From: Gammaproteobacteria bacterium
GTDB taxonomy: Bacteria; Pseudomonadota; Gammaproteobacteria; S012-40
Direction: 5' to 3'
Length of the DNA stretch: 64,000 nt
NCBI GenBank assembly: GCA_029884425.1
Contig: JAOUHV010000009.1
Coordinates: 1,571-65,570 of the forward strand
A program made the translations under genes and the position numbers. Below are positions 8,879 through 59,349 of the stretch, piece by piece; the stretch's first letter is position 1, and each line of letters begins with the position of its first letter. Below the pieces are notes generated by a model that searched no databases, was not told the origin of the DNA, and saw nothing but the letters and a program-made list of their open reading frames with translations.

Positions 8879-9219
8879 TGCCCAAAATCCGGCTATGCGC
8901 CCTTTCCGACATTGACGAAAACCAAAGCAAAGGCTTCTCCCCCGAAGGAGAGCCTTTGCAGCAACTGTTCATCGTTCGCCGCGATGGCCAATACTTCGCC
9001 TACCTCAACCAATGCCCTCACACCGGTGCCACCCTGAACTGGCAAGATCACCAGTTTCTGGACATCGACAATCAATATATTCAATGCGCTGTCCATGGCG
9101 CCCTTTTTCGGGTACACGATGGCTACTGTCTGCGCGGCCCCTGTGCCAACCAGCGACTGTCCTCAGTCAGCATCGAAATCCTGGATAACGACATTTACTG
9201 GCTAAAATCCCACACCTAA
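8878..9219 (+). CDS. Rieske [2Fe-2S] domain protein
   Basis: 113 aa. CPH..(17 aa)..CAVHG Rieske ligand boxes. The start overlaps the preceding stop (ATGA), suggesting translational coupling with the hydrolase. Confidence 0.75.
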   Translation: MPKIRLCALSDIDENQSKGFSPEGEPLQQLFIVRRDGQYFAYLNQCPHTGATLNWQDHQFLDIDNQYIQCAVHGALFRVHDGYCLRGPCANQRLSSVSIEILDNDIYWLKSHT

Positions 9220-9346
9220 TCTAGTATTTTTGCTGGAATTTTCAGCAAACAATCAAAAATCAGTTAATTTATTTGACGTTTTTCCGCTAAGACTTACTGC
9301 CTGCTTCTAGTAATCAGCACAATGACAACGGGAATGTCGAACTCTC

Positions 9347-11476
9347 ATGATGGAGCCAACATCAACAATTCAGCAGCGGCAACTGCAAACCAATCACTAC
9401 CAGTTGGAACAACTGTTTCGCGCCATTGGCACAACCATGGTCGCCAGCCTGCTTGCCAGTTTGTTTCTGTACGCCAGTATTCACGCGTATTTTGGCAATG
9501 CTCATGTCCATCTCTGGATGATAGCACAAGGGATTGTGACCATTATTGCACTGAGCTATCGCTCACTGTTCCGTAACAAAAATCAACAATTCACCGAAAA
9601 TCAATGGTGCGCTTCGCACATGGCCATTACCGCAACCAGTTCAGTGCTTTGGTGCCTGGCCATCAGTTGGACCTACACGAATGCCGCCGAAGTTCGCGAG
9701 CTGATTATCTTCCTCATTGCCGGATTACAAGCTGTCGCCGCCACAACACTCAGCTACAAACCCTGGCCCGTGATCGTTTTCAGCACTCCCATTTCCATTG
9801 CTATCATGATTCAGCTATATCTGCATCCAAATAGCATCGATGCCTTAGCTATCGCATATTTTGCCGCGCTGCTGCCCATCACTACCTTCATTGCAATACG
9901 TAACTACAACAACAATGTTCTTCTCTACCGCCATTTGCAAAAATCAAAAATCGACAGCGAACTATTATTGCGAAGCAAAGAGCGATTTCGGAATATTATC
10001 GATAGTGCCGGTGACATGCTGCTGGTACATGCGCCTGACGGCCGGATCATTGACGCCAATCATCGTGCCGTCAACTTATTGGGCTACCCGTCAAAAACCG
10101 AGTTGCTAAAAAAAACCATCACCGATATAGCTGGCGATGCCAGTGACATTTACCACCGTTTGCTGTGGTTGCTCAGCGATAATGAACCAGTCACTTACGA
10201 ATCACAATATACGTGTCTGGATAATAAAATACTCACCGTCGACGCCTGCGTTACCCACTACGACGATCCTCGCGAAGGCGATGTCGTTTTGGTTTTGGCT
10301 CGCGACATTACCGTCAAAAAACAAGAACGCCAGGAGTTAAATGAATCTCGACAAAAACTCGACTTACACATCCAATCAACACCACTTGCCACCATTGAAT
10401 GGGATAGCGAACAAAAAATTTCCAGTTGGAATCCTGCCGCAGAACACATCTTTGGCTATACCAGCGACGAAGTCGTCGGCACCTGCGGCATCAAGATACT
10501 GCTCGATGAAAGTAAAAACACTCCACACCTGTTTAGCGAATTAATCTCTGAAAATAACAAGCAAGTTATTATCTCGCACATCACCAAAGACAAGCGCGTC
10601 ATCTATTGCGAATGGTTTGTCACTCGACTATCGGACAATCAGGGCAACCCACTGGGCGCATCGGCCTTCGCCATGGACATCACCACACGAATCCAGGCAG
10701 AGCAAGCTTTCAAAATGGCTGTACAACGCGAGCAGCAAGCCAACAATGCCAAGTCTGAGTTTTTATCCCGCATGAGTCATGAACTGAGAACGCCACTTAA
10801 CGCCGTCATTGGCTTATCGCAACTGCTGCAATTTGACGACAACCTGACCAACCAACAGCAAGAATACATTGGCGACATTAGCAATGCAGGACAGCACCTG
10901 CTCGGTTTAATCAATGAAGTTTTAGATATTTCGCGCATAGAGCAAAACCGTTTTTTGCTCAACGAACAGCCCGAGAAGCTTCATCAACTAATAAGATCAG
11001 CCATCAACTTAACTGAAAATGTTATCAAGAATAAAAAGCTGGAATTAATTTACCAACCACAAGTCGACGACTTTTATTTCCTGGTCGACAAACAGCGCGT
11101 CGTACAAGTTTTGGTCAACCTGCTCAGCAACGCTACAAAATTCAATAACGAAGGTGGCAAAATATGGGTTTCCGAACGCCTACTCAACGATGACACCGTA
11201 GAAATCAGCGTTCGTGATAACGGCATGGGCATTCCCAACGAGATGCAAAACAAAATATTCCAACCATTCCAGCGCGCGGGGGCTGAATATTCCGGCATCG
11301 AAGGCAATGGTCTTGGATTAATGCTGAGCAAACAGCTCATCGAAAAAATGAGTGGTAGAATCGGTTTTGAAAGCACCTTAGGCAAAGGCAGCTGCTTCTG
11401 GATAAGACTCCCCACTAAAAGCAGCTCACTTCTAAACAGGCACGCACAATCGTCGCAACAAAAACCTATTTCCTGA
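9347..11476 (+). CDS. membrane-anchored PAS sensor histidine kinase
   Basis: 709 aa. About 190-aa multi-TM N-terminus, two PAS-like regions, HisKA (SEFLSRMSHELRTPLNAVIG), HATPase_c (N, D.G.G, G.GLGL boxes). No receiver domain. Confidence 0.8.
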   Translation: MMEPTSTIQQRQLQTNHYQLEQLFRAIGTTMVASLLASLFLYASIHAYFGNAHVHLWMIAQGIVTIIALSYRSLFRNKNQQFTENQWCASHMAITATSSVLWCLAISWTYTNAAEVRELIIFLIAGLQAVAATTLSYKPWPVIVFSTPISIAIMIQLYLHPNSIDALAIAYFAALLPITTFIAIRNYNNNVLLYRHLQKSKIDSELLLRSKERFRNIIDSAGDMLLVHAPDGRIIDANHRAVNLLGYPSKTELLKKTITDIAGDASDIYHRLLWLLSDNEPVTYESQYTCLDNKILTVDACVTHYDDPREGDVVLVLARDITVKKQERQELNESRQKLDLHIQSTPLATIEWDSEQKISSWNPAAEHIFGYTSDEVVGTCGIKILLDESKNTPHLFSELISENNKQVIISHITKDKRVIYCEWFVTRLSDNQGNPLGASAFAMDITTRIQAEQAFKMAVQREQQANNAKSEFLSRMSHELRTPLNAVIGLSQLLQFDDNLTNQQQEYIGDISNAGQHLLGLINEVLDISRIEQNRFLLNEQPEKLHQLIRSAINLTENVIKNKKLELIYQPQVDDFYFLVDKQRVVQVLVNLLSNATKFNNEGGKIWVSERLLNDDTVEISVRDNGMGIPNEMQNKIFQPFQRAGAEYSGIEGNGLGLMLSKQLIEKMSGRIGFESTLGKGSCFWIRLPTKSSSLLNRHAQSSQQKPIS

Positions 11477-12823: not shown

Positions 12824-15800
12824 CTACAAAAGCACCTTTTCGATGCCATCTTTTTTCACTTTTGAAACAAATTGCGGCTGCCAATTATCGCCGAGCAGTT
12901 TGTTCGCCAGCTCTACAACAATGTAATCGGTTTCCATGCCGGTATCGTTCTGATAGCGCGACAGGCCCTGCACACAAGCCGGACACGAGGTCAGCAGTTT
13001 TACATTGCCTTTTTTGGCCTTGCTCTCGCCGGTCAACTGCTCAACCCCTTTGATCAGTTCTTCCTGCTTACGGAACCGAACCTGGGCGGCAATATCCGGA
13101 CGGGCAGTTGCGAAAGTACCGGCTTCACCGCAGCAGCGGTCATTCAAACTTACCTTGTTGCCCAGCAGGTTCTGCGCCACGGTAATTGAATTATGGGTTT
13201 TCATCGGCGTGTGACAGGGCTCGTGATACATGTACTGCACACCGGCAACACCGTCGAGTTTCACACCCTTTTCCATCAAGTATTCGTGAATGTCCAGCAA
13301 ACGACAGCCAGGGAATATTTTTTCAAATTCGTATTTCAGCAACTGATCCATGCAGGTACCGCAGGAAACAATTACTGTTTTGATGTCCAGATAATTCAGC
13401 GTATTGGCGACACGATGGAACAGCACGCGATTTTCCGTACTGATCTGTCGACCTTTGGCATCGTCGCCACCAGAAGATTGCGGATAACCGCAGCACAAAT
13501 AGCCCGGCGGCAATACCGTCTGCGCACCAACCTCGTACAACATCGCTAGCGTCGCCAAGCCGACCTGACTGAACAGACGCTCCGAACCGCAGCCGGGGAA
13601 ATAAAACACCGCATCACTGTCATCGGTGACCTTCGCTGGATCGCGCAGAATTGGCACCGTTTTGCTGTCTTCCACTTCCAGCAAACCGCGCATGGTTTGC
13701 GACGGAATATTTGCCGGCATCGGTTTTTTGAAGAAGTTGATAACCTGTGCTGGCAATGGCGTCTTGCCAGTGGTGCCTTCCGGACGCTTGTTTTGCTTGA
13801 GCATGCCGGTGGTTTTCAACACCGAATGCGCCAGTCGTTGCCCTTTGGCTCCCCACTCAATCATACCTTTGCGCATGATACGAACCGCGGTCGGGTCAGT
13901 CACGTTCAGGTAACTCATCGCCAGTGCCGAGCCAAGATTCTTCGACTTCTGACCGCGATTATTCAAAATATTACGCAGCCGTACCGTCACATCACCAAAA
14001 TCGATATTGACCGGACATGGCGTCACACAGCGATGACACACGGTGCAGTGATCGGCCACATCATTGGCTTCGTCAAAGTGACGCAGGGAAATACCGCGAC
14101 GCGTTTGTTCTTCGTACAAAAACGCTTCGATGATCAAGCCCGTGGCCAGAATTTTATTGCGTGGCGAATACAACAGATTGGCGCGCGGCACGTGCGTGGT
14201 ACACACCGGCTTACACTTGCCACAACGCAAACAATGACGAATATCATCATTGAGCGCGCCCAGTTCGCTTTCTTCCAGAATCAGCGCTTCTTGCTGAACT
14301 AAGCGCAGCGATGGCGTATAGGCATTGGCCAGATCCGCGCCGCGCATCAACTTGCCTTTGTTGAAATGTCCTTTCGGATCAACCTTGGCTTTGTAACTGG
14401 CGAACGCATCCAGACTTTTATCGTCCATGTACTGAATTTTGGTGATCCCAATACCATGCTCGCCGGAAATCACGCCATCAAGCGACGTTGCCAGCGCCAT
14501 GATTTCATCGACCACATGATCGGCGGTTTGCAGCATTTCGTAATCGTTGGAATGCACCGGAATATTGGTGTGCACATTGCCATCGCCCGCATGCATGTGG
14601 GTGGCCACAAACAGGCGACTGGTGCGAATCTGCTGATGAATTTCGTCAAATTTCGCCCGCACCAATTCCTGCTCTCGACCGGCAAAAATTTCCTTGAGCG
14701 GCGATTCAATACTGTTGCGATAGGACACGCGCAAATCACGACGCAACAGCAGATCAAGCAGCGTATCACCCTCGCGCATTGCCTGCTGGGTACGCTCTGA
14801 CAAATGCGGCAAATGATCTCGCGCTGGTGCATCCAGTTTTTCCAAAAACGTCTGCCAGCGATTGCGCACTTCGGTCATGCGCGCTTTGGCGGCGATTTTT
14901 TTCTGCTCCAGAATCACATCGCTTTCGGCGCTGGCCAGATATTCCTTGTTCTTGCGCAGCAGCTCCTGCCAATCCTCGTCGATGAAGCCAAACACCGCAT
15001 CGAGAATTTTAATTTTATTGCGAATAGACTGGACGATATTGATGCGCTCAATACCGCGAGAATATTCTGCCAGTCGCGACAGTGGAATCACCACGTCTTC
15101 GTTAATCTTGAACGCATTGGTGTGCGCAGCAATGGCTGCGGTACGACTGCGATCCAGCCAGAAACGACGCCGTGCCTCCGGACTGATGGCGACAAAGCCC
15201 TCACCATCGCGGCGCTGAATCATCGCCACCACGTGCGCCACAGCCTCGGCCACATCGGCTTCAACATCGCCGGAGATATCCGCAATCAACACCATCTTGG
15301 GCTGTTCGCGACGCGCTGCCTTGGTGGCGTATTTCACTGCCTTGACGTAACGCTCGTCCAAGTGTTCCAGACCGGCCAACACAACCGTGGGATGCTTTTG
15401 CAAATAATCGTTAATTTCAACTATCGCCGGTACGGCATTGCCAACGTCGTAGCCAAAAAATTCCATGCAGACGGTTTGGGTAAAATTGGGCATACGGTGC
15501 AGCACAAACACACCGGAGGTAATCAAACCGTCACAGCCTTCTTTTTGCACGCCAGGCAAACCACCGAGGAATTTGTCGGTAACATCTTTGCCCAGACCCA
15601 GTTTGCGGAATGCCTGACCCGGCATTTGCAGAATTTCCGGTTCGCCTTTACGCGTTTTGCCATCAGCCTGATAGCGGGTAATACGGAACGTCACCTGCGC
15701 CTGATCGTGAATCTTGCCCAGGTTGTGATTGATGCGCTCGACCTCCAGCCACTCGGCATCGGGCGTCACCATCCGCCAGGAAACCAGATTGTCCAGCGCC

Positions 15801-16669
15801 GTACCCCACAGCACGGCTTTTTTGCCGCCGGCATTCATCGCGATGTTGCCGCCAATGGTGGACGCATCCTGCGAAGTAGGATCGACCGCAAACACACAAC
15901 CCGCCGCTTCGGCGACCTCGGCCACGCGTCGTGTCACTACACCGGCTTCAGCACGCACCGTAGCAACGTCGCGATCCACGCCTTCCAGACGACGCGTCTC
16001 GACCTTGCCCAGACCTTCCAGCTTTTCGGTATTAACCACCGCCGATTCGGACACCAGCGGAATCGCACCGCCGGTGTAGCCGGTACCGCCGCCGCGAGGA
16101 ATCACGGTCAGCCCCAGCGCAATACACTCTTTGACCACCAGCGCCATTTCTTCTTCGCTGTCCGGCGTAATGACCACAAACGGGAATTCCACCCGCCAGT
16201 CGGTCGCGTCGGTCACATGAGATACGCGCGCCAAACCACCAAAATCGATATTGTCCTTGCGGGTGATGCGCCCCAGCCGCTTGCTGGCCTCGGCGCGCAG
16301 CACCATCTGCCGCGCAAACCAGGCTTCAAATTCAGTCACTGCCAAGCGCGCCGCACCGACCAGTTTGCGCGTCAGTTCATTTTCGTTGGCGCGCAAGTCG
16401 ATCTGGTCCAGACGATGGTGCAATGCACCGACCAGCGCCTTATTGCGGCTTTCGTTTTCCAGCAGGTCGTCCTGGATGTAAGGATTGCGCGTGATAACCC
16501 ACATATCCCCCAACACCTCGAACAGCATGCGTGCCGATCGACCGGTGCGACGGGTGCCGCGCAGCTCGTTGAGCACGCGCCACATGTCCTCGCCCAAAAA
16601 GCGAATGACGATTTCTCGGTCGGAAAATGAGGTGTAATTGTAGGGAATTTCGCGAATGCGCATGGGCAA
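12824..16669 (-). CDS. DUF3683-containing FAD-binding / (Fe-S)-binding oxidoreductase (YdiJ-like 2-hydroxyacid dehydrogenase)
   Basis: 1281 aa. N-terminal extension, an FAD-binding PCMH domain, a GlcD-like oxidase body, then C-terminal CX2CX2CX3C ferredoxin-like and CCG cysteine-rich domains (GlcF/HdrD-like). Collinear with E. coli YdiJ plus roughly 260 extra N-terminal residues. Confidence 0.8.
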
Positions 16670-24942: not shown

Positions 24943-25890
<948 letters not shown>

Positions 25891-52028: not shown

Positions 52029-52057
52029 AAAAAAAAGCCGCGACACCAGGTCGCGGC
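52029..52057 (-). terminator. orphan minus-strand intrinsic terminator in the divergent intergenic region upstream of the GRE operon
   Basis: Minus strand reads GCCGCGAC-ctggt-GTCGCGGC followed by U8 (plus strand shows the A8 run at 52029-52036). No minus-strand ORF of 30 aa or more lies upstream of it between 52058 and 52372. Confidence 0.5.
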
Positions 52058-52298
52058 CAAGGGACTACGGAGCAAAAATTGCGCGTGAGAATCGGGTACT
52101 TTACCAACCACCCAAACTCTTCGCCGTTATCGCCAGCCCCCCCATACCAACTGAAGCCACAATCGTCCTGTTCACAAAAATTTTACCCGCAGCAATCACT
52201 CACCACCCAGCCAGAATCATTCGTTCCGTCAGCCTGTCTTTTCTGCCTAAAACCAAGGGAATAGCCTCATAAATTGTCACGTTTCCTTTACTATCCCT

Positions 52299-52328
52299 AT
52301 TGGAAAGCCCTCCCTCATCTCTCTATAC
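52299..52328 (+). promoter_or_regulatory. candidate sigma70 promoter of the GRE operon
   Basis: TTGGAA, 18-nt spacer, TATACT. About 45 nt upstream of the GRE start codon. A GAGG Shine-Dalgarno sits 9 nt before the ATG at 52373. Confidence 0.35.
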
Positions 52329-52372
52329 TGGAGGTGAGCCCTTTTCCACCCAAATCTTTGAGGCATCTACTC

Positions 52373-55357
52373 ATGAGTGAATCCCAGCTTGGCCACGGGG
52401 GCATACAGATCGACCTGACGAACCCCGCCAGTAAAACCCACGACTCCCCCAGCCGCGTATTTCCCATCGCCAACGACAATCCAAAGCAGGTCAAAACACT
52501 GCGCGATTTGTCACTGACCGACATCAGCATCAATGATTTCCAAACCGTCAAATGGTGGCGCGAGCGGCTTTTTCTCGACGAAGGAACACCGGAAATTTGC
52601 GATGAATTGCCGCGCTTGCTCACCGAATTCATGCGCGACCCTGCCAATGATGAACTACCGCCTTACCAAAGACGCGCCGAAGCACTGAACTATATTTTCA
52701 GCAAGAAAACACCACTGGTGCGCAAAACAGATTTATTACCCGGTCAAACCACAACCAGTTTTGTTGGCCCAGTAATTTATGCTGACACCATTGGCTATTG
52801 CATCTGGCCAGAATTAAATACCGTCACTCATCGTGCGCAAAATCCGTTCAAAATAAAACCTGAAGTTGCAGAACGCTTAAACAAAGAAATTTTTCCCTAC
52901 TGGTTGCAACGCCTGCCTGTGCAGGAAGTCGCCCGTTATCGCGCCTATGACACCCAACAATATCGCAACGATGGCCGCGACACCGTGGACGGTGGCCATT
53001 ATCACGGCATTCCATCCATCGACCCGCAATTGAAAAAAGCTGCCGGTGAAACACCGACCTGTCAGGCATTGATGGAACGCGTGTCCTTTTTCCTGTCAGA
53101 CAAAGCCACCTGCGTTTCGCACACCGTGCCGGATTTTGCGCGCGTGCTCAAATACGGTCTGAATGGTTTAATTCAACAAGCCAATAACGATATCGCCAAT
53201 TCCGCACTCAGTGATTCGCAACAACAGTTTTTAAAAGGCGTCGTCTGCGTGTTTGAGGGCGCAAAAAACTATGCGCAACATTTGGCGCAAGCTGCCGCCG
53301 AGGCAGGCAATACCGAACTGAGCGCTATCTGCCAGCGCGTACCGGCACAACCTGCACGCACGCTGCATGAAGCCATCACCAGCATCTGGATTTGCTATCA
53401 CCTGTTGCTACAGGAAAATACCAATTTTGGTTTGTCCATTGGTCGTCTTGATCAACTGCTCAATCCGTATTATCTCAGCGATTGGTCACAACTGGGTTCC
53501 GGCCAGGAACGCGACGCCTATACCAAGCACGCCGTAGAGTTGATGTGTCATTTCTTCCTTCGTTGTTCCGATCACGTTCCGCTATCCACCGAAGGTTCTG
53601 AAACCTTGTTCGCCGGCAGCGGTTCCAATCAGGCGCTGACGGTCGGTGGCACACAGGTGGTCGATGGCAAAGTTGTCGATGCCGTTAACGACATGACCTA
53701 CATCATTCTCAAAGCCACGGAATTGCTGGGCATTCGCGACCCGAATGTTCATGCCCGTTATCACAAAGATGTGCATCATCGCGACGCCAGTGGCAATCCT
53801 CTGCCTGCCGAAGTCCACGATGGTTATCTCAAGCGAATTTGTCAGGTCAATATTCTCACTCGCGCCACACCGGCGCTGCATGGCGATGCCGCCGTGGTTG
53901 ATGCCATGGCCAGCTATTACGCGGCTCATGATGGCGTGAGCGCCGATGAGGCACTGGCTGACGCCCACGATTACGCCTCCATCGGCTGCATTGAGCAAAA
54001 TTCAGCAGGTAAACATTACGGCAACACCGGCTCGACCTTGATGGTTTTACCTGCTGTGCTGGAGCTGGCGATGTTTGGCGGCAAACATCGCAGCGACGGC
54101 ATCGCTGCCAATGATCCGAATTTATTTTACGGCGCGAGCGCCTACACCACACCACCGCTCAGCCGAATGAAAACCATGGAAGAGTTCATCGCTGCTTTTC
54201 GTATCCAGCTGGATGAAATGGCCAGACATGCAGTGCAATGCAACAACTATCTGGGGCGCGCCATGGAAGATGTTCGGCCTTCGCCATTTTTGTCTGGCTT
54301 GTTTGTTGGACCAAGTAATTTACCTGGCGGACAAGGTGCCAAGTTCCGCGACGTTGCCGCTGGTGGGGCAAAATACAATTCCGCCGGGGTTGCCATTATC
54401 GGTCTGGCCGATGTCATCGACTCGTTCTGCATTTTTGATCAATTAGTCTTTGGTAAAAAAATCTCAGTCAGCGAATTGCTGTCCGCAATGAACAGCAACT
54501 TTGGTCAGCAAGCGCCCGCCTCAGCAAAAGAAAGCAGCTGGATTCGACGCATTATCCAGCGCATCGTTGCCTGGTTGCGTTTGTCTGACGAACTGCAAAC
54601 GCTGCCTACGCTCAGCGATGAGCGCATCGCACAAATCAACCAGCTGCTGCGCCGCGCACCCAAATATGGCGCCGGCATTGAACAAACACCGGGCAGTGTT
54701 TACGACAATCATCTTGCGGTGAAATACACGCACCTGCTGACCGAAATGATTCATGATACGTTCTACAAATATCGCACCCATCGCGGTGGCCGCTATCTGG
54801 TCGGCTATTGGAGCATGACCAACCATGCCGGCTTTGGCATGCTAACCAAAGCCACGCCCAATGGCCGCCGCGGTGGTCAATCGTTTGCCAGCGGCATCAC
54901 CCCTTGCCCCAACATTGTCAAAGCCAACGGTGATCCGGTAATGATTTTCGATCACATGCTGTCGGTGGCTGAAGTCCGTCCGCAGACGGTGCAAAATGGC
55001 TACACCTACAACCTCAGTCTGACCACTCGCGATGCTGAACATTTTGACGCCGACACCGAACTGTTTTCGCGCTACATGAAAGCCTTCATGGATCATGACG
55101 GTGTATTGGTGCAGCTGTGCGTATCCTCCATTGAGGATTTGCGCGCAGCCCACAAGGCAGCCAATGACGCCGAAGCCATCGGTGCCACGACTGAAGCCAA
55201 ACAGGCGCTGACACCGTTCAAGGATTTAATGATTCGCGTTGCAGGATACTCTGCCTATTTCGTCACTCTCAGCCCGCAAATGCGGCAGGAGATTATCGAT
55301 CGGGCGAACTTCTCACTCGACACAGGCAAAGAAACACACACCGCTTTCAGCGTTTAG
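52373..55357 (+). CDS. glycyl radical enzyme, PFL2 (glycerol dehydratase/CutC-like) class, unknown substrate
   Basis: About 994 aa. C-terminal glycyl-radical loop IRVAGYSAYFVTLSPQMRQEIIDR (Gly codon 55244-55246). Active-site loop SIGCIEQ (Cys 53987-53989, Glu two residues later), which is the C-x-E arrangement of PFL2-class enzymes rather than the PflB Cys-Cys pair. N-terminal region homologous to PFL2 N-termini (RRAEALNYIFSKKTPLVRKTDLLPGQTT) preceded by a ~100-aa extension. Start at MSESQLGHGG; the ORF track begins 33 codons upstream without a Shine-Dalgarno. Confidence 0.85.
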   Translation: MSESQLGHGGIQIDLTNPASKTHDSPSRVFPIANDNPKQVKTLRDLSLTDISINDFQTVKWWRERLFLDEGTPEICDELPRLLTEFMRDPANDELPPYQRRAEALNYIFSKKTPLVRKTDLLPGQTTTSFVGPVIYADTIGYCIWPELNTVTHRAQNPFKIKPEVAERLNKEIFPYWLQRLPVQEVARYRAYDTQQYRNDGRDTVDGGHYHGIPSIDPQLKKAAGETPTCQALMERVSFFLSDKATCVSHTVPDFARVLKYGLNGLIQQANNDIANSALSDSQQQFLKGVVCVFEGAKNYAQHLAQAAAEAGNTELSAICQRVPAQPARTLHEAITSIWICYHLLLQENTNFGLSIGRLDQLLNPYYLSDWSQLGSGQERDAYTKHAVELMCHFFLRCSDHVPLSTEGSETLFAGSGSNQALTVGGTQVVDGKVVDAVNDMTYIILKATELLGIRDPNVHARYHKDVHHRDASGNPLPAEVHDGYLKRICQVNILTRATPALHGDAAVVDAMASYYAAHDGVSADEALADAHDYASIGCIEQNSAGKHYGNTGSTLMVLPAVLELAMFGGKHRSDGIAANDPNLFYGASAYTTPPLSRMKTMEEFIAAFRIQLDEMARHAVQCNNYLGRAMEDVRPSPFLSGLFVGPSNLPGGQGAKFRDVAAGGAKYNSAGVAIIGLADVIDSFCIFDQLVFGKKISVSELLSAMNSNFGQQAPASAKESSWIRRIIQRIVAWLRLSDELQTLPTLSDERIAQINQLLRRAPKYGAGIEQTPGSVYDNHLAVKYTHLLTEMIHDTFYKYRTHRGGRYLVGYWSMTNHAGFGMLTKATPNGRRGGQSFASGITPCPNIVKANGDPVMIFDHMLSVAEVRPQTVQNGYTYNLSLTTRDAEHFDADTELFSRYMKAFMDHDGVLVQLCVSSIEDLRAAHKAANDAEAIGATTEAKQALTPFKDLMIRVAGYSAYFVTLSPQMRQEIIDRANFSLDTGKETHTAFSV

Positions 55358-55366
55358 GAGAATGAT

Positions 55367-56014
55367 ATGCACGCAGGCTTTCCCAATTACAGTCAACATC
55401 TTCATTCGGTATTAACGCTAGGGCGAAATCACGAAAAAATCCCGCAGATTGTCGAAAAACTGGGCGGCCCCATTGTCGCCAAGGGAGTCGCGGCACTGGT
55501 GGAATTTGGTTTTGTGTTCGTCATGCGCGATGCACTGCTAGATCCGGCGCATCGCAATCGTGCCACGCGTTTTTTTGATGACAATTTCGTCATACGCGAC
55601 CCTTACGTCAAGGGTGGCCAGCGCTACTACAACGGCAAATTTTTGCTGCGCACGAAAAAGCCCGGCGACAACATGAATGTTCACATTGAGTTTTGCAAAA
55701 ACCCTGACGCCTTGTTTTGTGATACGCCATTTGGCAAAACCATCAACCCACTGGAAATTGTCACCACCACAACCCTGACAGAAAATCAGGCCCTGGCCAT
55801 TGAACGCAATCCAGACAAAGTCGATTTGGTCATCGCTTTTAAAGACCTGGCCAGCATCATTAATCTGATTGGCAGGGACGAAGTCGATGTCGTCGGTTTG
55901 TTGCTGGAAAATATGGTACAGCTTACCGGCAATGTAGGTCACCTTTTCAAACTTGGCGCAATCGCATGCGAAGTTGAGCGTTTCATTGGCGTCGCCAATC
56001 AGCCGACTCACTGA
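55367..56014 (+). CDS. hypothetical protein co-operonic with the GRE (215 aa)
   Basis: 9 nt after the GRE stop; its own stop overlaps the activase start (ATGA). No Cys-rich Fe-S motif and no recognisable domain. Confidence 0.5.
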   Translation: MHAGFPNYSQHLHSVLTLGRNHEKIPQIVEKLGGPIVAKGVAALVEFGFVFVMRDALLDPAHRNRATRFFDDNFVIRDPYVKGGQRYYNGKFLLRTKKPGDNMNVHIEFCKNPDALFCDTPFGKTINPLEIVTTTTLTENQALAIERNPDKVDLVIAFKDLASIINLIGRDEVDVVGLLLENMVQLTGNVGHLFKLGAIACEVERFIGVANQPTH

Positions 56015-56904
56015 TGAGCATGCAAACCCAGGCATGGATTTTCGACATCAAACGCGATTGCAGCGAGGACGGACCTGGCATACGCACCACAGTTTTTTTC
56101 AAAGGCTGCCCTCTGCAGTGTCAGTGGTGCCAAAACCCGGAAGGTCTGCCCACACCCCATCATTTTCATCCTATCACCGAGCAATGTGCTGAACTGGACA
56201 ATGGCGAGCTGATTGATCTGCAAACGCTGCTGCATCGCGTGCTGATCGACAAACATTTCTTCATCTCCAGCGGCGGCGGGGTAACGGTCTCTGGCGGCGA
56301 AGCAACCCTACAACATGACTTCCTTCACCATTTTTTAAAACAACTCAAAGCCGAAGGCATACACACCTGCCTGGAAACCAGTGGATTCTTCAACTATCGC
56401 CGTTTCAGTGAACAGTTATTGCCCTATCTGGATCTGATTTATTTTGACGTAAAAATTTTCGACGACACCCTCAGCCGCCAATTCACCAAGCAAGGCAGCT
56501 CCCTTATTTTGCAGAATCTGAAAAACCTCAGCCAACAATCCAAGGTCACCGTCATCCCACGAATTCCATTAATCCCTGGTATCACCACCCGCAAAGACAA
56601 TCTTGTTCGCATTGCACAACACCTGCGCCAATTACATTTTTCCACCGCTGTTTTGCTGCCATACAACCCCCTATGGCAGGACAAGCTGGCCAAACTCAAT
56701 ATGCACAGCGAATATCAGCGAAAAACTTTCATGACTGCGGATGAACTACAGGAGTGCCAGGATATTTTCATTTCTGCACTTAACCAAACTTCACAAGCAA
56801 CCAACGATTATCATGGCGTACAAGGAGATCACAATGAACAATCCTTACCTGAGCAGCCACAATTTCCCCTGCCAAAACGAACAAGAGAGGCAACAACTCA
56901 ATAA
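56014..56904 (+). CDS. glycyl-radical enzyme activating enzyme (radical SAM, PflA-type)
   Basis: 296 aa. GIRTTVFFKGCPLQCQWCQNPE (CX3CX2C radical-SAM cluster), SGGGVTVSGGEATLQ and EGIHTCLETSGF motifs near-identical in pattern to E. coli PflA. No CX2CX2CX3C ferredoxin-like insert. Confidence 0.85.
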   Translation: MSMQTQAWIFDIKRDCSEDGPGIRTTVFFKGCPLQCQWCQNPEGLPTPHHFHPITEQCAELDNGELIDLQTLLHRVLIDKHFFISSGGGVTVSGGEATLQHDFLHHFLKQLKAEGIHTCLETSGFFNYRRFSEQLLPYLDLIYFDVKIFDDTLSRQFTKQGSSLILQNLKNLSQQSKVTVIPRIPLIPGITTRKDNLVRIAQHLRQLHFSTAVLLPYNPLWQDKLAKLNMHSEYQRKTFMTADELQECQDIFISALNQTSQATNDYHGVQGDHNEQSLPEQPQFPLPKRTREATTQ

Positions 56905-59317
56905 CAAGCTGCAAGACATTCTCGCGCGTGATGGCCAGGAAAATCCGTTTGCCATGTTCGCCAACTATCAGCGCATCCTTGCTGACAACAACAAAAAAGA
57001 TCAATGGCCCGCCGTTCACAACACCTTGCGCACCTTATTTGAATGCGGCTCTGCTGTTGCCATCGACGGCCCAATGATAGGCATTCCAGTTTCCATTCGT
57101 GACAGCGATTTTTTCCGCGAGCTTGCTCAACAATTCGGCCAACAACGTTCCGCCATCGCCGGACTGGAAGTCATGGCCAGCGCATGGAATGCCACGTTTG
57201 CTGATACGGGCTTGTGGATGGGAAAAACCTTTGAGCCATTGTCTCGCGAACAGGTCCGGGGAATTTGTAATGATGACTCCGTCACCATGGAGACTTATGA
57301 CGCCAGCAAAACACGCATAGGTCGAAATTTTTTCCGCCCACCGGGCAATCCCAATTTAGTTCAAGGCATCGGCCTTCCCGGCCTGCACCGACTATGGCGA
57401 CTGCAGGATAGACCGACCTCCCCCGGCGACCCACGATTCATGGGTGAGATCTTGCCCAAGAATCTGGAAAAAGAGAAAACCATACCTTACACCGAAACCG
57501 GCGGTATTTTTTTGGCTGACATGGGCCAATCAGTTGTGCCGGAAATGCGCAATAAAAAAGTCTATCAGCTCAATTATCGCTGGGATAGCTTGCAGCCCAC
57601 CTACCCGATGACATGTTTGATCGATGAGCTGGTACAAGTCGCCGACGGCATTTATCTAGGTCAACTGGTTTTTGCCACACAACACTTCAACGTAGGCCAG
57701 CTCGACATCTCGTTTTTGGAGCACCACACACCACTCACCCTTGGCGAAAAATATCAACCGCGCAAGCCCGCCAGCTGGTGGCAACGTTTCCTTGATTTTT
57801 TGCTACGTCGCAACAGTGGAAAATTTGTTGATTACGGCTACCAGAACAACGGCTTTTTCTTGATGATGGACCCGGCCTATGCCTCGCAGGTTTATGCCGA
57901 CGATGCGTTTCCACAACTGCGTCCACGTCCCGGTGAAGCAGGCTTCCGCGAGCTGGGCTACGACAAACTCGCCAACGTTGAGGATACGCCTCGCGCACTG
58001 GATGAATGGAAAGACGGCTGGAAGAAGCATGCGGATTTGCGCGCAAAATTCACCACCATGACTCTGGAAACATCGCCCGTGGCCGGCGACAACGCTATCG
58101 TATCGACCCTGCTTCAACCTGACGAAAGCATTTTGCAGATGCTGCAGCGCATCAGCCAGCGCATCTCATCACAAACATCCCACTTCGACAGACTTGAGGA
58201 ATTTGAAAGCCTCAATCGCTTGTTCCGTTGCGGCATCGCACCCACGGTTGTCAACGGCGTATTTCAAAGTGCGTCAGAGAAAAACTATCACGTCCGACTC
58301 AACAGCCAAAACAGTTACGACTGGTATGGTGAGCGCAACCGCATTCAGGGGTTTGACTATTATCACGGCGCCACGCTCAGTTTGCATGGTGGCTTTGGCG
58401 ATAATCTGCGGACGGGGGCATTTGATGACCAGTGGCTGCTGCCCAACACGCTCGCGGCCATGTTGCGCGAGGACAAACTCTATGATCCCAATGTGCTCGA
58501 TATGGTATGGCGCGCCATAGGCAAATATATTTTCCCTTGGGGCGGAAAATCCTTTGAGAAAATTCCGCCGCGCACCCTCAGTATGCTGCTGGACGAAAGT
58601 GATGATCTTGCACAGCGCTATCCCGAACGTGTCGAGCAATTAAAAAATCATCTGGCCAGCGCGCCGCATTATCAACTGACCAAATTTAATGCCCAGCACC
58701 ATTGGGAACCTGGAAAGTATGCTGCGCACTTGTCACATGGCAGCTGGGACAATGGCATGACCGAGCAGGACAAAGCATTCTGGCAGGATCAGGCAGATAA
58801 TCATTGGGTACAGGGATATAACTTGCAGGACAAACGCATTCTCAGCGCCGATGCATTCATGCGCATCGTTGACATGAACTACCGCGTTCCCGATCCGTTG
58901 CTGCAAGCCTACGCAGCGCAAGGACCGTCACCATTCGTACGTCAGGGTTACATGTTCCTGGGCGTTGCCGATCAAACCTCCATTTTGCCAATGAATCATG
59001 GCAACGAGCAGCGCAAGCAAGTGTTCCAGTTCCACTATCGCTATCCCATGATTGGCGGCCCGGCACCGATTGGTTTTTGTCTGGATGAGTTAGTGCAACT
59101 TGCTGACGGTTTGTTTTTGGGGCAGCTGATTTATGCCACACGCTTAACTGAACCGTTCCACTCCTCCGTGCCAGCAGAAAAATATGCCTATCAGTTGTTC
59201 GGTTATTTTCTGCTGCTGGACAACGACTGGGAATCACATCGCCAGGCCATTGGTCTGGATGTGCTGGACGCCAAGCCACAAACGGTTGTCGAACAACTGG
59301 TGGATCTGGTCAGCTAA
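56834..59317 (+). CDS. large uncharacterised protein with internal tandem duplication, last gene of the GRE operon
   Basis: About 827 aa from the ATG at 56834 (AAGGAG Shine-Dalgarno 6 nt upstream), which overlaps the activase 3' end by 71 nt. Alternative starts are 56741 and 56954. Two homologous halves (YQLNYRWDSLQPTYPMTCLIDELVQVADGIYLGQLVFAT..GYQNNGFFLMMD vs FQFHYRYPMIGGPAPIGFCLDELVQLADGLFLGQLIYAT..AYQLFGYFLLLD). No known domain recognised. Confidence 0.55.
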   Translation: MNNPYLSSHNFPCQNEQERQQLNNKLQDILARDGQENPFAMFANYQRILADNNKKDQWPAVHNTLRTLFECGSAVAIDGPMIGIPVSIRDSDFFRELAQQFGQQRSAIAGLEVMASAWNATFADTGLWMGKTFEPLSREQVRGICNDDSVTMETYDASKTRIGRNFFRPPGNPNLVQGIGLPGLHRLWRLQDRPTSPGDPRFMGEILPKNLEKEKTIPYTETGGIFLADMGQSVVPEMRNKKVYQLNYRWDSLQPTYPMTCLIDELVQVADGIYLGQLVFATQHFNVGQLDISFLEHHTPLTLGEKYQPRKPASWWQRFLDFLLRRNSGKFVDYGYQNNGFFLMMDPAYASQVYADDAFPQLRPRPGEAGFRELGYDKLANVEDTPRALDEWKDGWKKHADLRAKFTTMTLETSPVAGDNAIVSTLLQPDESILQMLQRISQRISSQTSHFDRLEEFESLNRLFRCGIAPTVVNGVFQSASEKNYHVRLNSQNSYDWYGERNRIQGFDYYHGATLSLHGGFGDNLRTGAFDDQWLLPNTLAAMLREDKLYDPNVLDMVWRAIGKYIFPWGGKSFEKIPPRTLSMLLDESDDLAQRYPERVEQLKNHLASAPHYQLTKFNAQHHWEPGKYAAHLSHGSWDNGMTEQDKAFWQDQADNHWVQGYNLQDKRILSADAFMRIVDMNYRVPDPLLQAYAAQGPSPFVRQGYMFLGVADQTSILPMNHGNEQRKQVFQFHYRYPMIGGPAPIGFCLDELVQLADGLFLGQLIYATRLTEPFHSSVPAEKYAYQLFGYFLLLDNDWESHRQAIGLDVLDAKPQTVVEQLVDLVS

Positions 59318-59349
59318 AAAAAGGGGCCCGAAAGGGCCCCTGTCTTTTT
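59316..59349. terminator. bidirectional intrinsic terminator ending the GRE operon
   Basis: A7-GGGGCCC-gaaa-GGGCCCC-tgtcTTTTT immediately after the stop at 59317. Confidence 0.8.

Follow-up and report, generated by a model that had tools for sequence, protein, structure and literature searches.

A divergent glycyl radical enzyme with candidate SCP2-like and lipocalin-like partners forms a widespread bacterial gene module that may act on a hydrophobic, cell-made substrate

The 64,000-nt stretch of DNA analysed here (the window; contig JAOUHV010000009.1 of the gammaproteobacterial assembly GCA_029884425.1) carries, at positions 52373-59317 of the + strand, four head-to-tail open reading frames (ORFs) that encode a glycyl radical enzyme (GRE), a small protein that we call P2, a radical SAM activase and a large, internally duplicated protein, P4. 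All four genes of this operon, first proposed from the letters alone, are present where the original prediction placed them. The identity of the GRE and its activase is close to certain. The PFL2-like enzyme class itself is already known; what is new is a GRE of an uncharacterised family accompanied by an unprecedented set of accessory proteins. The enzyme probably carries out eliminase- or isomerase-type chemistry. A fuller reading, in which it acts on a bulky, hydroxylated, hydrophobic and cell-made substrate handed over by P2 and P4, falls a little short of an even chance in our estimation, and the evidence on either side of it is set out below.

The GRE proved to be a divergent member of the PFL2 class, with the RVAGYS and G-C-I-E motifs that had led to its recognition. 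It matches PF02901 across residues 63-822 with 349.6 bits (cut-off 24.3), as well as PF01228 at 22.4 bits (cut-off 22.2), and its RVAGYS sequence aligns with the Gly loops of 2f3o, 1r8w and 9rco. In the Cys loop, Cys539 and Glu541 align with C433 and E435 of glycerol dehydratase (1r8w), forming a CXE motif. Likewise, the CVSHTVP segment containing H250 is kept in both of the module types described below, and the residue to which H250 corresponds, His164 of glycerol dehydratase, is the proposed proton donor to the leaving group. Like the PFL2-class eliminases and isomerases (1r8w, CutC, propanediol dehydratase, HypD, IslA/HpsG and YbiW/PflD), the enzyme thus combines a PFL-like barrel, a Gly loop, CXE and a His164 equivalent with an adjacent activase gene. 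A June 2026 GRE review (PMC13450708) describes CXE as kept in every characterised GRE 1,2-eliminase and isomerase, with the Glu binding the substrate hydroxyl. It is the retention of CXE and the His164 equivalent in both versions of the GRE that leads us to favour eliminase or isomerase chemistry.

Compared with those enzymes, the GRE is 150-200 residues longer and reaches only 334 bits on TIGR01774, split over three stretches and below the cut-off of 678.2. Every equivalog model for a characterised GRE scored at one fifth of its cut-off or less: CutC 219 against 1050, HpsG 196 against 1000, HpfG 182 against 1000, PRK09983 (PflD-type) 184 against 1109, HypD 152 against 1100, indoleacetate decarboxylase 133 against 1100, 4-hydroxyphenylacetate decarboxylase 80 against 1150 and pyruvate formate-lyase (PFL; TIGR01255) 36.7 against 994. 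Model scores and motifs together ruled out a true PFL, CutC, glycerol dehydratase, HypD, IslA/HpsG, the decarboxylases and the X-succinate synthases. With all equivalogs below cut-off and both partners unmatched, this is not an already characterised enzyme with described partners. The closest sequences in the PDB are 2f3o (5e-58), followed by glycerol dehydratase and CutC. Homologues of about 990 amino acids from Methylomonas, Nitrosomonas, Gallionella and others are 65-74% identical, and are recorded publicly as “pyruvate formate lyase family protein”, “formate acetyltransferase” or, once, in Nitrosomonas, “glycerol dehydratase”. The PFL-type names are wrong in the narrow sense, and the last is unsupported.

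The GRE owes its extra length to an N-terminal extension, four or more internal insertions, of which the largest spans residues ~711-770, and 16 residues immediately before the Gly loop. Within the largest insertion lies an amphipathic stretch, KESSWIRRIIQRIVAWLR (residues 719-736, window 54527-54580), whose hydrophobic moment (0.66) is equalled but not exceeded elsewhere in the enzyme; a role as membrane anchor was set aside, as the high moment occurs only in the window and in one homologue. The active-site pocket also departs from that of glycerol dehydratase. In the alignment with 1r8w, His281 and Ser282 are replaced by Phe and Gly, Tyr339 by Ser and Asp447 by Gly, and across both versions of the GRE these positions hold Phe/Met, Gly/Ala, Ser/Ala and Gly/Ser, respectively. 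Out of the substrate-binding set His164, Ser282, Asp447 and Tyr339, only the His164 equivalent is kept. These small or hydrophobic replacements suggest a pocket that is larger and less polar than that of glycerol dehydratase.

The activase passes TIGR02494 with 207.6 bits (cut-off 174.35) and contains no ferredoxin-like insert with its two Cys-rich motifs, in keeping with the PflA-type architecture foreseen for it. Most PFL2-class activases carry such an insert. Among the activases that accompany this GRE family, some have the insert and others lack it altogether (loci L003, L017, L026, L064 and L020 contrasted with L004, L009, L015, L032 and L069 in the alignment), and the auxiliary clusters therefore seem to be dispensable in these proteins and to have been lost or gained repeatedly. 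The window activase ends in a tail of about 40 residues (…NQTSQATNDYHGVQGDHNEQSLPEQPQFPLPKRTREATTQ; window 56785-56904), which the start of the P4 gene overlaps by 71 nt. The tail is missing from most aligned homologues, while two carry unrelated tails of similar length, and it is probably a by-product of the rearrangement that placed P4 behind the activase.

The P2 gene lies between the GRE and activase genes, the slot occupied by HpdC-type small subunits, and keeps this position in both module versions. No Pfam or NCBIfam model matches P2, even at E = 10, and no PDB sequence does; its homologues are 52-63% identical and, where named, hypothetical or uncharacterised. By fold it models as an SCP2-like protein. 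The order large subunit, small protein, activase is the same as in HpdBC-A and BssABC-D, where the small protein is likewise conserved with the enzyme; however, small subunits of the HpdC, BssB and BssC type bind Fe-S or Fe, whereas P2 has three cysteines (110, 118 and 201), of which C110 alone is invariant among 30 homologues, so that there is no cysteine cluster for an iron-sulfur centre. The earlier statement that the operon lacks a small subunit therefore holds for the Fe-S type, but not for small subunits in general, and P2 may well be a new kind. It also differs from the SCP2 proteins of ubiquinone biosynthesis, UbiJ and UbiT, with which it shares 13% identity, in having extra N-terminal helices, no match to the Pfam SCP2 model and no linked ubiquinone biosynthesis gene.

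P4 is, as anticipated, internally duplicated: its halves match each other by BLASTP at E = 4e-12 (residues 218-352 against 700-802). In the structural model (predicted local distance difference test score, pLDDT, 74; predicted template modelling score, pTM, 0.56) a beta-barrel closes each half, and we have moderate, not firm, confidence that each is lipocalin-like. Neither half matches a Pfam or NCBIfam model, even at E = 10, a profile search of PDB sequences returned nothing meaningful, and Foldseek comparison of the model with the PDB gave nothing at E ≤ 0.001. When set beside Tcur_1030 (4mve, itself uncharacterised) and the lipocalin/calycin barrels, P4 would consist of two such modules in tandem, extended by large helical parts. 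The two partner proteins were originally described as uncharacterised, which is right with respect to families and PDB entries, yet neither appears featureless, given the SCP2-like model of P2 and the two lipocalin-like barrels modelled in P4.

Homologues of P4 are 55-60% identical and, where named, hypothetical or uncharacterised. Since a profile search of 1.84 billion representatives returned a single full-length one at 50% clustering, next to distant relatives of 300-700 amino acids without Pfam domains, the family is unusually tight. One distant relative (608 amino acids; L081, 3844-5670) matches in six stretches and has no GRE nearby, so the barrel module exists outside GRE systems; it adjoins histidine kinase, PKD-domain and PEP-CTERM genes, a context that offers no functional lead. 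In Methylomonas sp. DH-1 (L082, 16566-18955) the gene calls divide P4 into two overlapping genes (440 and 380 amino acids). The break falls on the repeat boundary, and is due to a frameshift or to a true division of the protein into halves.

A survey of gene neighbourhoods placed this operon within a much broader pattern. P4 relatives were scanned with one genome per species, giving 80 loci onto which the window proteins were mapped and in which all ORFs were clustered; linkage was counted over the 40 loci in which P4 is flanked by 6 kb or more on each side. A GRE gene is present in 34 of these 40, the GRE, small protein and activase genes together in 32, and a gene for DUF6765 (PF20551), a 352-residue protein with many invariant His and Asp residues, in 27. 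The commonest order is P4, GRE, small protein, activase, DUF6765, as against GRE, P2, activase, P4 in the window, and inverted or split arrangements are frequent. That the linkage survives such reshuffling points to selection on co-location or shared function, and not to inherited synteny. Each module protein forms several hundred clusters at 90% identity, and the hosts include methanotrophs, nitrifiers, iron and sulfur oxidisers, Nitrospirota, Desulfobacterota and Acidobacteria. The gene set had been thought to fit no characterised system, and with respect to the two partners it fits none; it is not, however, a one-off, but a widespread module.

Outside the module nothing is conserved at the related loci, in particular no aldehyde or alcohol dehydrogenase, transporter or shell genes; ABC ATPase, histidine kinase, response regulator and LolC-like genes were rejected as members because each occurs at 10 loci or fewer and was judged incidental. 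In agreement with the original prediction, no bacterial microcompartment shell gene was found in the window, nor in 87 related loci, by tblastn with a PduA query. In this the locus differs from those of the PFL2-class eliminases and isomerases, as it is without downstream aldehyde-handling or microcompartment genes and its partners are unlike those of any known GRE system. Profiles of DUF6765 and of the small protein of the second module type gave nothing meaningful against PDB sequences, although one of nine DUF6765 members weakly matched a Zn-dependent phospholipase C (E = 0.054), and DUF6765 may be a metal-dependent hydrolase.

Two additional gene families were seen near some clusters. A lipase-like alpha/beta hydrolase gene lies between DUF6765 and P4 in Methylomonas (L064, L066 and L072, each at ~9080-9940; L082, 15651-16514) and directly upstream of P4 in one Desulfobulbaceae metagenome-assembled genome (L067, 3910-4782). 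The proteins of the two groups are 39% identical and score 35.6 and 24.4 bits on Palm_thioest (cut-off 26.8), just above the cut-offs of PGAP1 and Lipase_2 and below that of LCAT. Genes of the fatty-acid-hydroxylase superfamily (PF04116) are found 4-7 kb from the cluster on gammaproteobacterial and Desulfurivibrio contigs (L087, 2007-2882; L085 and L011, 5526-6554); their products are 56% identical, and these two independent cases may be due to chance.

The module exists in two versions. Type A, to which the window belongs, combines a GRE of ~990 amino acids with a 215-residue P2 and occurs in Gamma- and Betaproteobacteria and Nitrospirota, with hosts such as Methylomonas, Methylobacter, Crenothrix, Nitrosomonas, Gallionella, Sulfuricella, Sedimenticola and Chromatiaceae. 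Type B combines a GRE of ~820 amino acids with a 147-residue small protein and is found in Desulfobulbaceae, Desulfocapsa, Desulfobacteraceae, Smithella, Syntrophus, Bryobacterales and Holophagaceae. The hosts of the longer type A enzyme, with its many insertions, are mostly aerobes or microaerophiles, and those of the compact type B enzyme are strict anaerobes. Each GRE has its nearest relative in the other (451 bits, 32% identity along the whole length), and both contain CXE, the His164 equivalent and an MTNHAG motif; the type B enzyme, too, remains below the TIGR01774 cut-off, at 548 bits. The two small proteins are homologous over their SCP2-like part, with an hhalign probability of 91% and ~22% identity. 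For both versions the best solved match is Archaeoglobus fulgidus PFL2 (2f3o), with type B reaching 5e-116; unlike the window enzyme, that protein is archaeal, has 776 amino acids and no insertions and keeps the Asp447 equivalent, and the 2026 review reports no P2- or P4-like partners for it, its gene neighbourhood not having been examined here.

Comparison of identities within and between the two types, taken as sampled mean pairwise values, separates the module proteins into two groups. For the GRE, identity is 68% within type A, 69% within type B and 32% between the types, and for the activase 55%, 48% and 41%. The corresponding values are 60%, 63% and 58% for P4 and 52.5%, 57% and 52% for DUF6765. 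P4 and DUF6765 therefore behave, on these alignments, as one slowly evolving family each across both types, while the trio of GRE, small protein and activase is deeply split in two. The small protein appears to co-evolve with the GRE, consistent with direct contact between them, and a factor that both types share, in the simplest case the substrate, would constrain P4 and DUF6765.

These observations enable us to propose a mechanism. The activase would install a radical, predicted to reside on Gly958 of the GRE, and a thiyl radical would then take a hydrogen from the hydroxyl-bearing carbon of the substrate. Glu541 would deprotonate the substrate hydroxyl, and the ketyl radical so formed would expel or shift the group on the adjacent carbon. 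The model assigns the GRE a bulky and hydrophobic substrate that is probably a lipid or an alcohol resembling one, and that is a constituent of the cell instead of an imported food. The SCP2-like P2 and the two lipocalin-like barrels of P4 would hand it to the GRE, with P2 probably acting as a small subunit at the substrate channel, and activity of the module would be confined to oxygen-poor conditions at the oxic-anoxic boundary that its hosts inhabit.

SCP2-like and lipocalin folds usually bind hydrophobic molecules. A hydrophobic substrate is suggested because both partners are modelled with folds of this kind and because the residues of the polyol-binding pocket have given way to small or hydrophobic ones. 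That it is made by the cell and not catabolised is suggested by the lack of linked genes for catabolic follow-up steps, and by the fact that many hosts are obligate autotrophs, among them the lithoautotrophs Nitrosomonas and Gallionella. The lipase-like hydrolase in some clusters and the weak match between DUF6765 and phospholipase C point towards a lipid-like molecule.

Several observations weigh against this proposal. A protein with an SCP2-like or barrel fold need not bind lipids, neither the Pfam SCP2 model nor the Pfam lipocalin models match P2 and P4, respectively, and the view of the pocket comes from a sequence alignment and not from a structure of this GRE. The lipase-like gene occurs at only 5 loci. 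DUF6765 was not found in the window (no tblastn match better than E = 0.1), and it is also missing from 6 of 20 well-flanked type A loci. In the two closest relatives, whose GREs are 73% identical to that of the window, DUF6765 occupies the slot of P4, with no P4 within 9 kb, which speaks against taking a physical cooperation of P4 with the GRE for granted.

It is possible, though we regard it as doubtful, that the module represents the first GRE system to work on a membrane lipid or another hydrophobic molecule made by the cell. An ancient, slowly evolving and lipid-handling pair of P4 and DUF6765, joined in some genomes by the lipase-like hydrolase, would then have been coupled to two diverged trios of GRE, SCP2-like protein and activase, resulting in an oxygen-independent modification of lipids, for example by radical elimination at a glycerol or polyol head group, in bacteria of the oxic-anoxic interface, among them methanotrophs, nitrifiers and iron oxidisers that pass for aerobes. 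Bacteriohopanepolyols, phosphatidylglycerol or diacylglycerol head groups, quinones and lipid A precursors were considered as substrates, and none is claimed.

Alternatively, P2 and P4 might be structural or protective subunits that stabilise the GRE, shield or repair its radical or gate its channel, with an ordinary soluble metabolite as the substrate. Channel gating by a beta subunit is known from benzylsuccinate synthase. P2 does sit in the small-subunit slot and diverges together with the GRE (~22% and ~32% identity between versions, respectively), small subunits of other GREs control channel access according to the review (PMC13450708), and the expanded type A enzyme is found in aerobes and microaerophiles. 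P4 is, however, equally conserved in strict anaerobes (58% between types), making oxygen protection unlikely as its main role; moreover, both partners are modelled with ligand-binding folds, and P4 is sometimes far from the GRE, which would be unusual for an obligate subunit. Taken together, we consider this explanation unlikely.

Still less likely is that the GRE is an eliminase of new specificity for a small diol, glycerol or amino-alcohol, surrounded by genes unrelated to it in function. Such an enzyme would agree with the presence of CXE and the His164 equivalent and with its nearest solved relatives, PFL2, glycerol dehydratase and CutC, and in Nitrosomonas, where the homologue is recorded as glycerol dehydratase, a gene for a MIP-family channel adjoins the cluster. 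Nevertheless, all equivalog models are far under their cut-offs, three of the four checked substrate residues of glycerol dehydratase are replaced, and the linkage of GRE, P4 and small protein holds across phyla and gene orders, while no aldehyde or alcohol dehydrogenase or shell gene is conserved and the hosts are largely autotrophs.

The activation of a hydrocarbon or another unfunctionalised lipid chain by addition to fumarate, as in the X-succinate synthases, has been proposed for 2f3o, the best PDB match of the GRE. The function of that protein is debated between glycerol dehydratase and alkylsuccinate synthase in the review (PMC13450708), and the apparent hydrophobic-ligand folds of P2 and P4 would suit such a reaction. 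CXE is, on the other hand, the hallmark of eliminases and isomerases in the same source, and benzylsuccinate and alkylsuccinate synthases are matched far less well (1e-14 and 1e-12). Furthermore, there are no Fe-S small subunits, P2 having one invariant cysteine, no linked beta-oxidation genes, and hosts that include obligate ammonia and iron oxidisers, all of which makes fumarate addition a very improbable activity for this enzyme. A role as PFL, finally, as carried by source annotations such as “formate acetyltransferase” and “pyruvate formate lyase family protein”, can practically be discounted in view of the TIGR01255 score, a Cys loop that reads GCIE in place of the adjacent Cys-Cys pair of PFL, and a marginal match to a PFL structure (38la, 1.3e-07).

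To our knowledge, all characterised PFL-like GREs act on small soluble molecules or small hydrocarbons. Those characterised recently come largely from anaerobes of microbiomes, and the hydrocarbon-activating ones from environmental anaerobes. Full-text literature searches for DUF6765 and for GREs with SCP2, lipocalin, methanotrophs or Methylomonas/Nitrosomonas returned no description of these genes, while one Gallionella paper merely repeats the PFL annotation. Outside its small-subunit section, the June 2026 review (PMC13450708) describes nothing similar and mentions no SCP2 protein, methanotroph or Nitrosomonas.

The family is large and tightly conserved, and its hosts drive the cycling of methane, nitrogen, iron and sulfur at redox boundaries. 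Some of them are usually treated as obligate aerobes, and the module could reveal an anaerobic trait of methanotrophs and nitrifiers. Once the substrate is identified, the GRE superfamily would be extended by a new class of reaction or of substrate, and the conserved pair of P4 and DUF6765, set against two GREs that are 32% identical, constitutes a natural comparative experiment. The availability of cultured, genetically tractable hosts such as Methylomonas sp. DH-1 (GRE accession ANE57473.1) and M. koyamae, and of cultured Nitrosomonas aestuarii and N. oligotropha, makes these proposals directly testable.

The layout of the window operon is summarised in Table 1. As predicted, the genes are tightly packed with overlapping stops and starts. 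A ribosome-site-like AGGAG for P2 overlaps the GRE stop codon, the stop codon of P2 and the ATG of the activase share 1 nt (TGATG), and the activase and P4 genes overlap by 71 nt. The reading frame of the GRE is open upstream to a TTG at 52274, with GAGG 11 nt 5' of the ATG at 52373, and homologues measure 985-1000 amino acids. The P4 ORF opens at 56741; an ATG at 56834, with AAGGAG 7 nt upstream, is its likely start, and the resulting N-terminus, MNNPYLSSHNFP, agrees with the consensus MTxYLSSxNFP of 29 homologues. A promoter region belonging to the operon, also part of the original prediction, could not be upheld: it comes down to a single site, and the region contains 7 promoter-like matches against 6.4 ± 2.3 in shuffled sequence, which is no excess. 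The predicted terminator is borne out by a G+C-rich hairpin that begins 5 nt past the P4 stop codon, between P4 and the convergent gene for a class V aminotransferase.

Table 1. Positions of the operon genes and their principal features in the window
Feature	Position	Strand	Basis or remark
Promoter-like site TTGGAA-18 nt-TATACT	52300-52329	+	9/12 consensus; 44 nt upstream of GRE start
GRE (994 aa from ATG; type A form)	52373-55357	+	PF02901, ORF
CVSHTVP segment including H250	53111-53131	+	H250 aligns with His164 of glycerol dehydratase (1r8w)
Cys loop GCIEQ, residues 538-542; catalytic Cys539, Glu541 (CXE)	53984-53998	+	alignment
Gly loop RVAGYS, residues 955-960; predicted radical site Gly958	55235-55252	+	motif, alignment
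P2 (215 aa)	55367-56014	+	SCP2-like small protein (model), small-subunit position
Activase, radical SAM, 296 aa	56014-56904	+	TIGR02494
CX3CX2C (C32, C36, C39), radical SAM [4Fe-4S] cluster motif	56107-56130	+	motif
P4 (827 aa, internally duplicated, two modelled beta-barrel modules)	56834-59317	+	ORF, start by homologues
P4 barrel repeat, copy 1, residues 218-352, VYQLNYRW ... LIDELVQVADGIYLGQLVFAT	57485-57889	+	BLASTP of halves
P4 barrel repeat, copy 2, residues 700-802, VFQFHYRY ... CLDELVQLADGLFLGQLIYAT	58931-59239	+	BLASTP of halves
Terminator-like hairpin, bidirectional, 8 pairs (7 G-C)	59322-59341	both	T runs on both strands

The operon is flanked by genes for an HPP-CBS membrane protein, a NUDIX protein, the class V aminotransferase and a methyltransferase. 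The HPP-CBS gene is divergent from that of the GRE, and the 494-nt gap between the two contains a strong, leftward-pointing hairpin of terminator type (52036-52058, - strand; 9 pairs, 7 of them G-C, followed by T7) at which no gene of the same strand ends. It could mark a small RNA or be a remnant. Further away, at 24955-25890, lies hemF, which encodes an oxygen-dependent coproporphyrinogen oxidase (PF01218, 451 bits); its presence, correctly noted before, supports a host that is able to live with oxygen. Elsewhere in the window, two long ORFs overlap on opposite strands, one of 1281 amino acids at 12824-16669 (-) and one of 608 amino acids at 14804-16630 (+).

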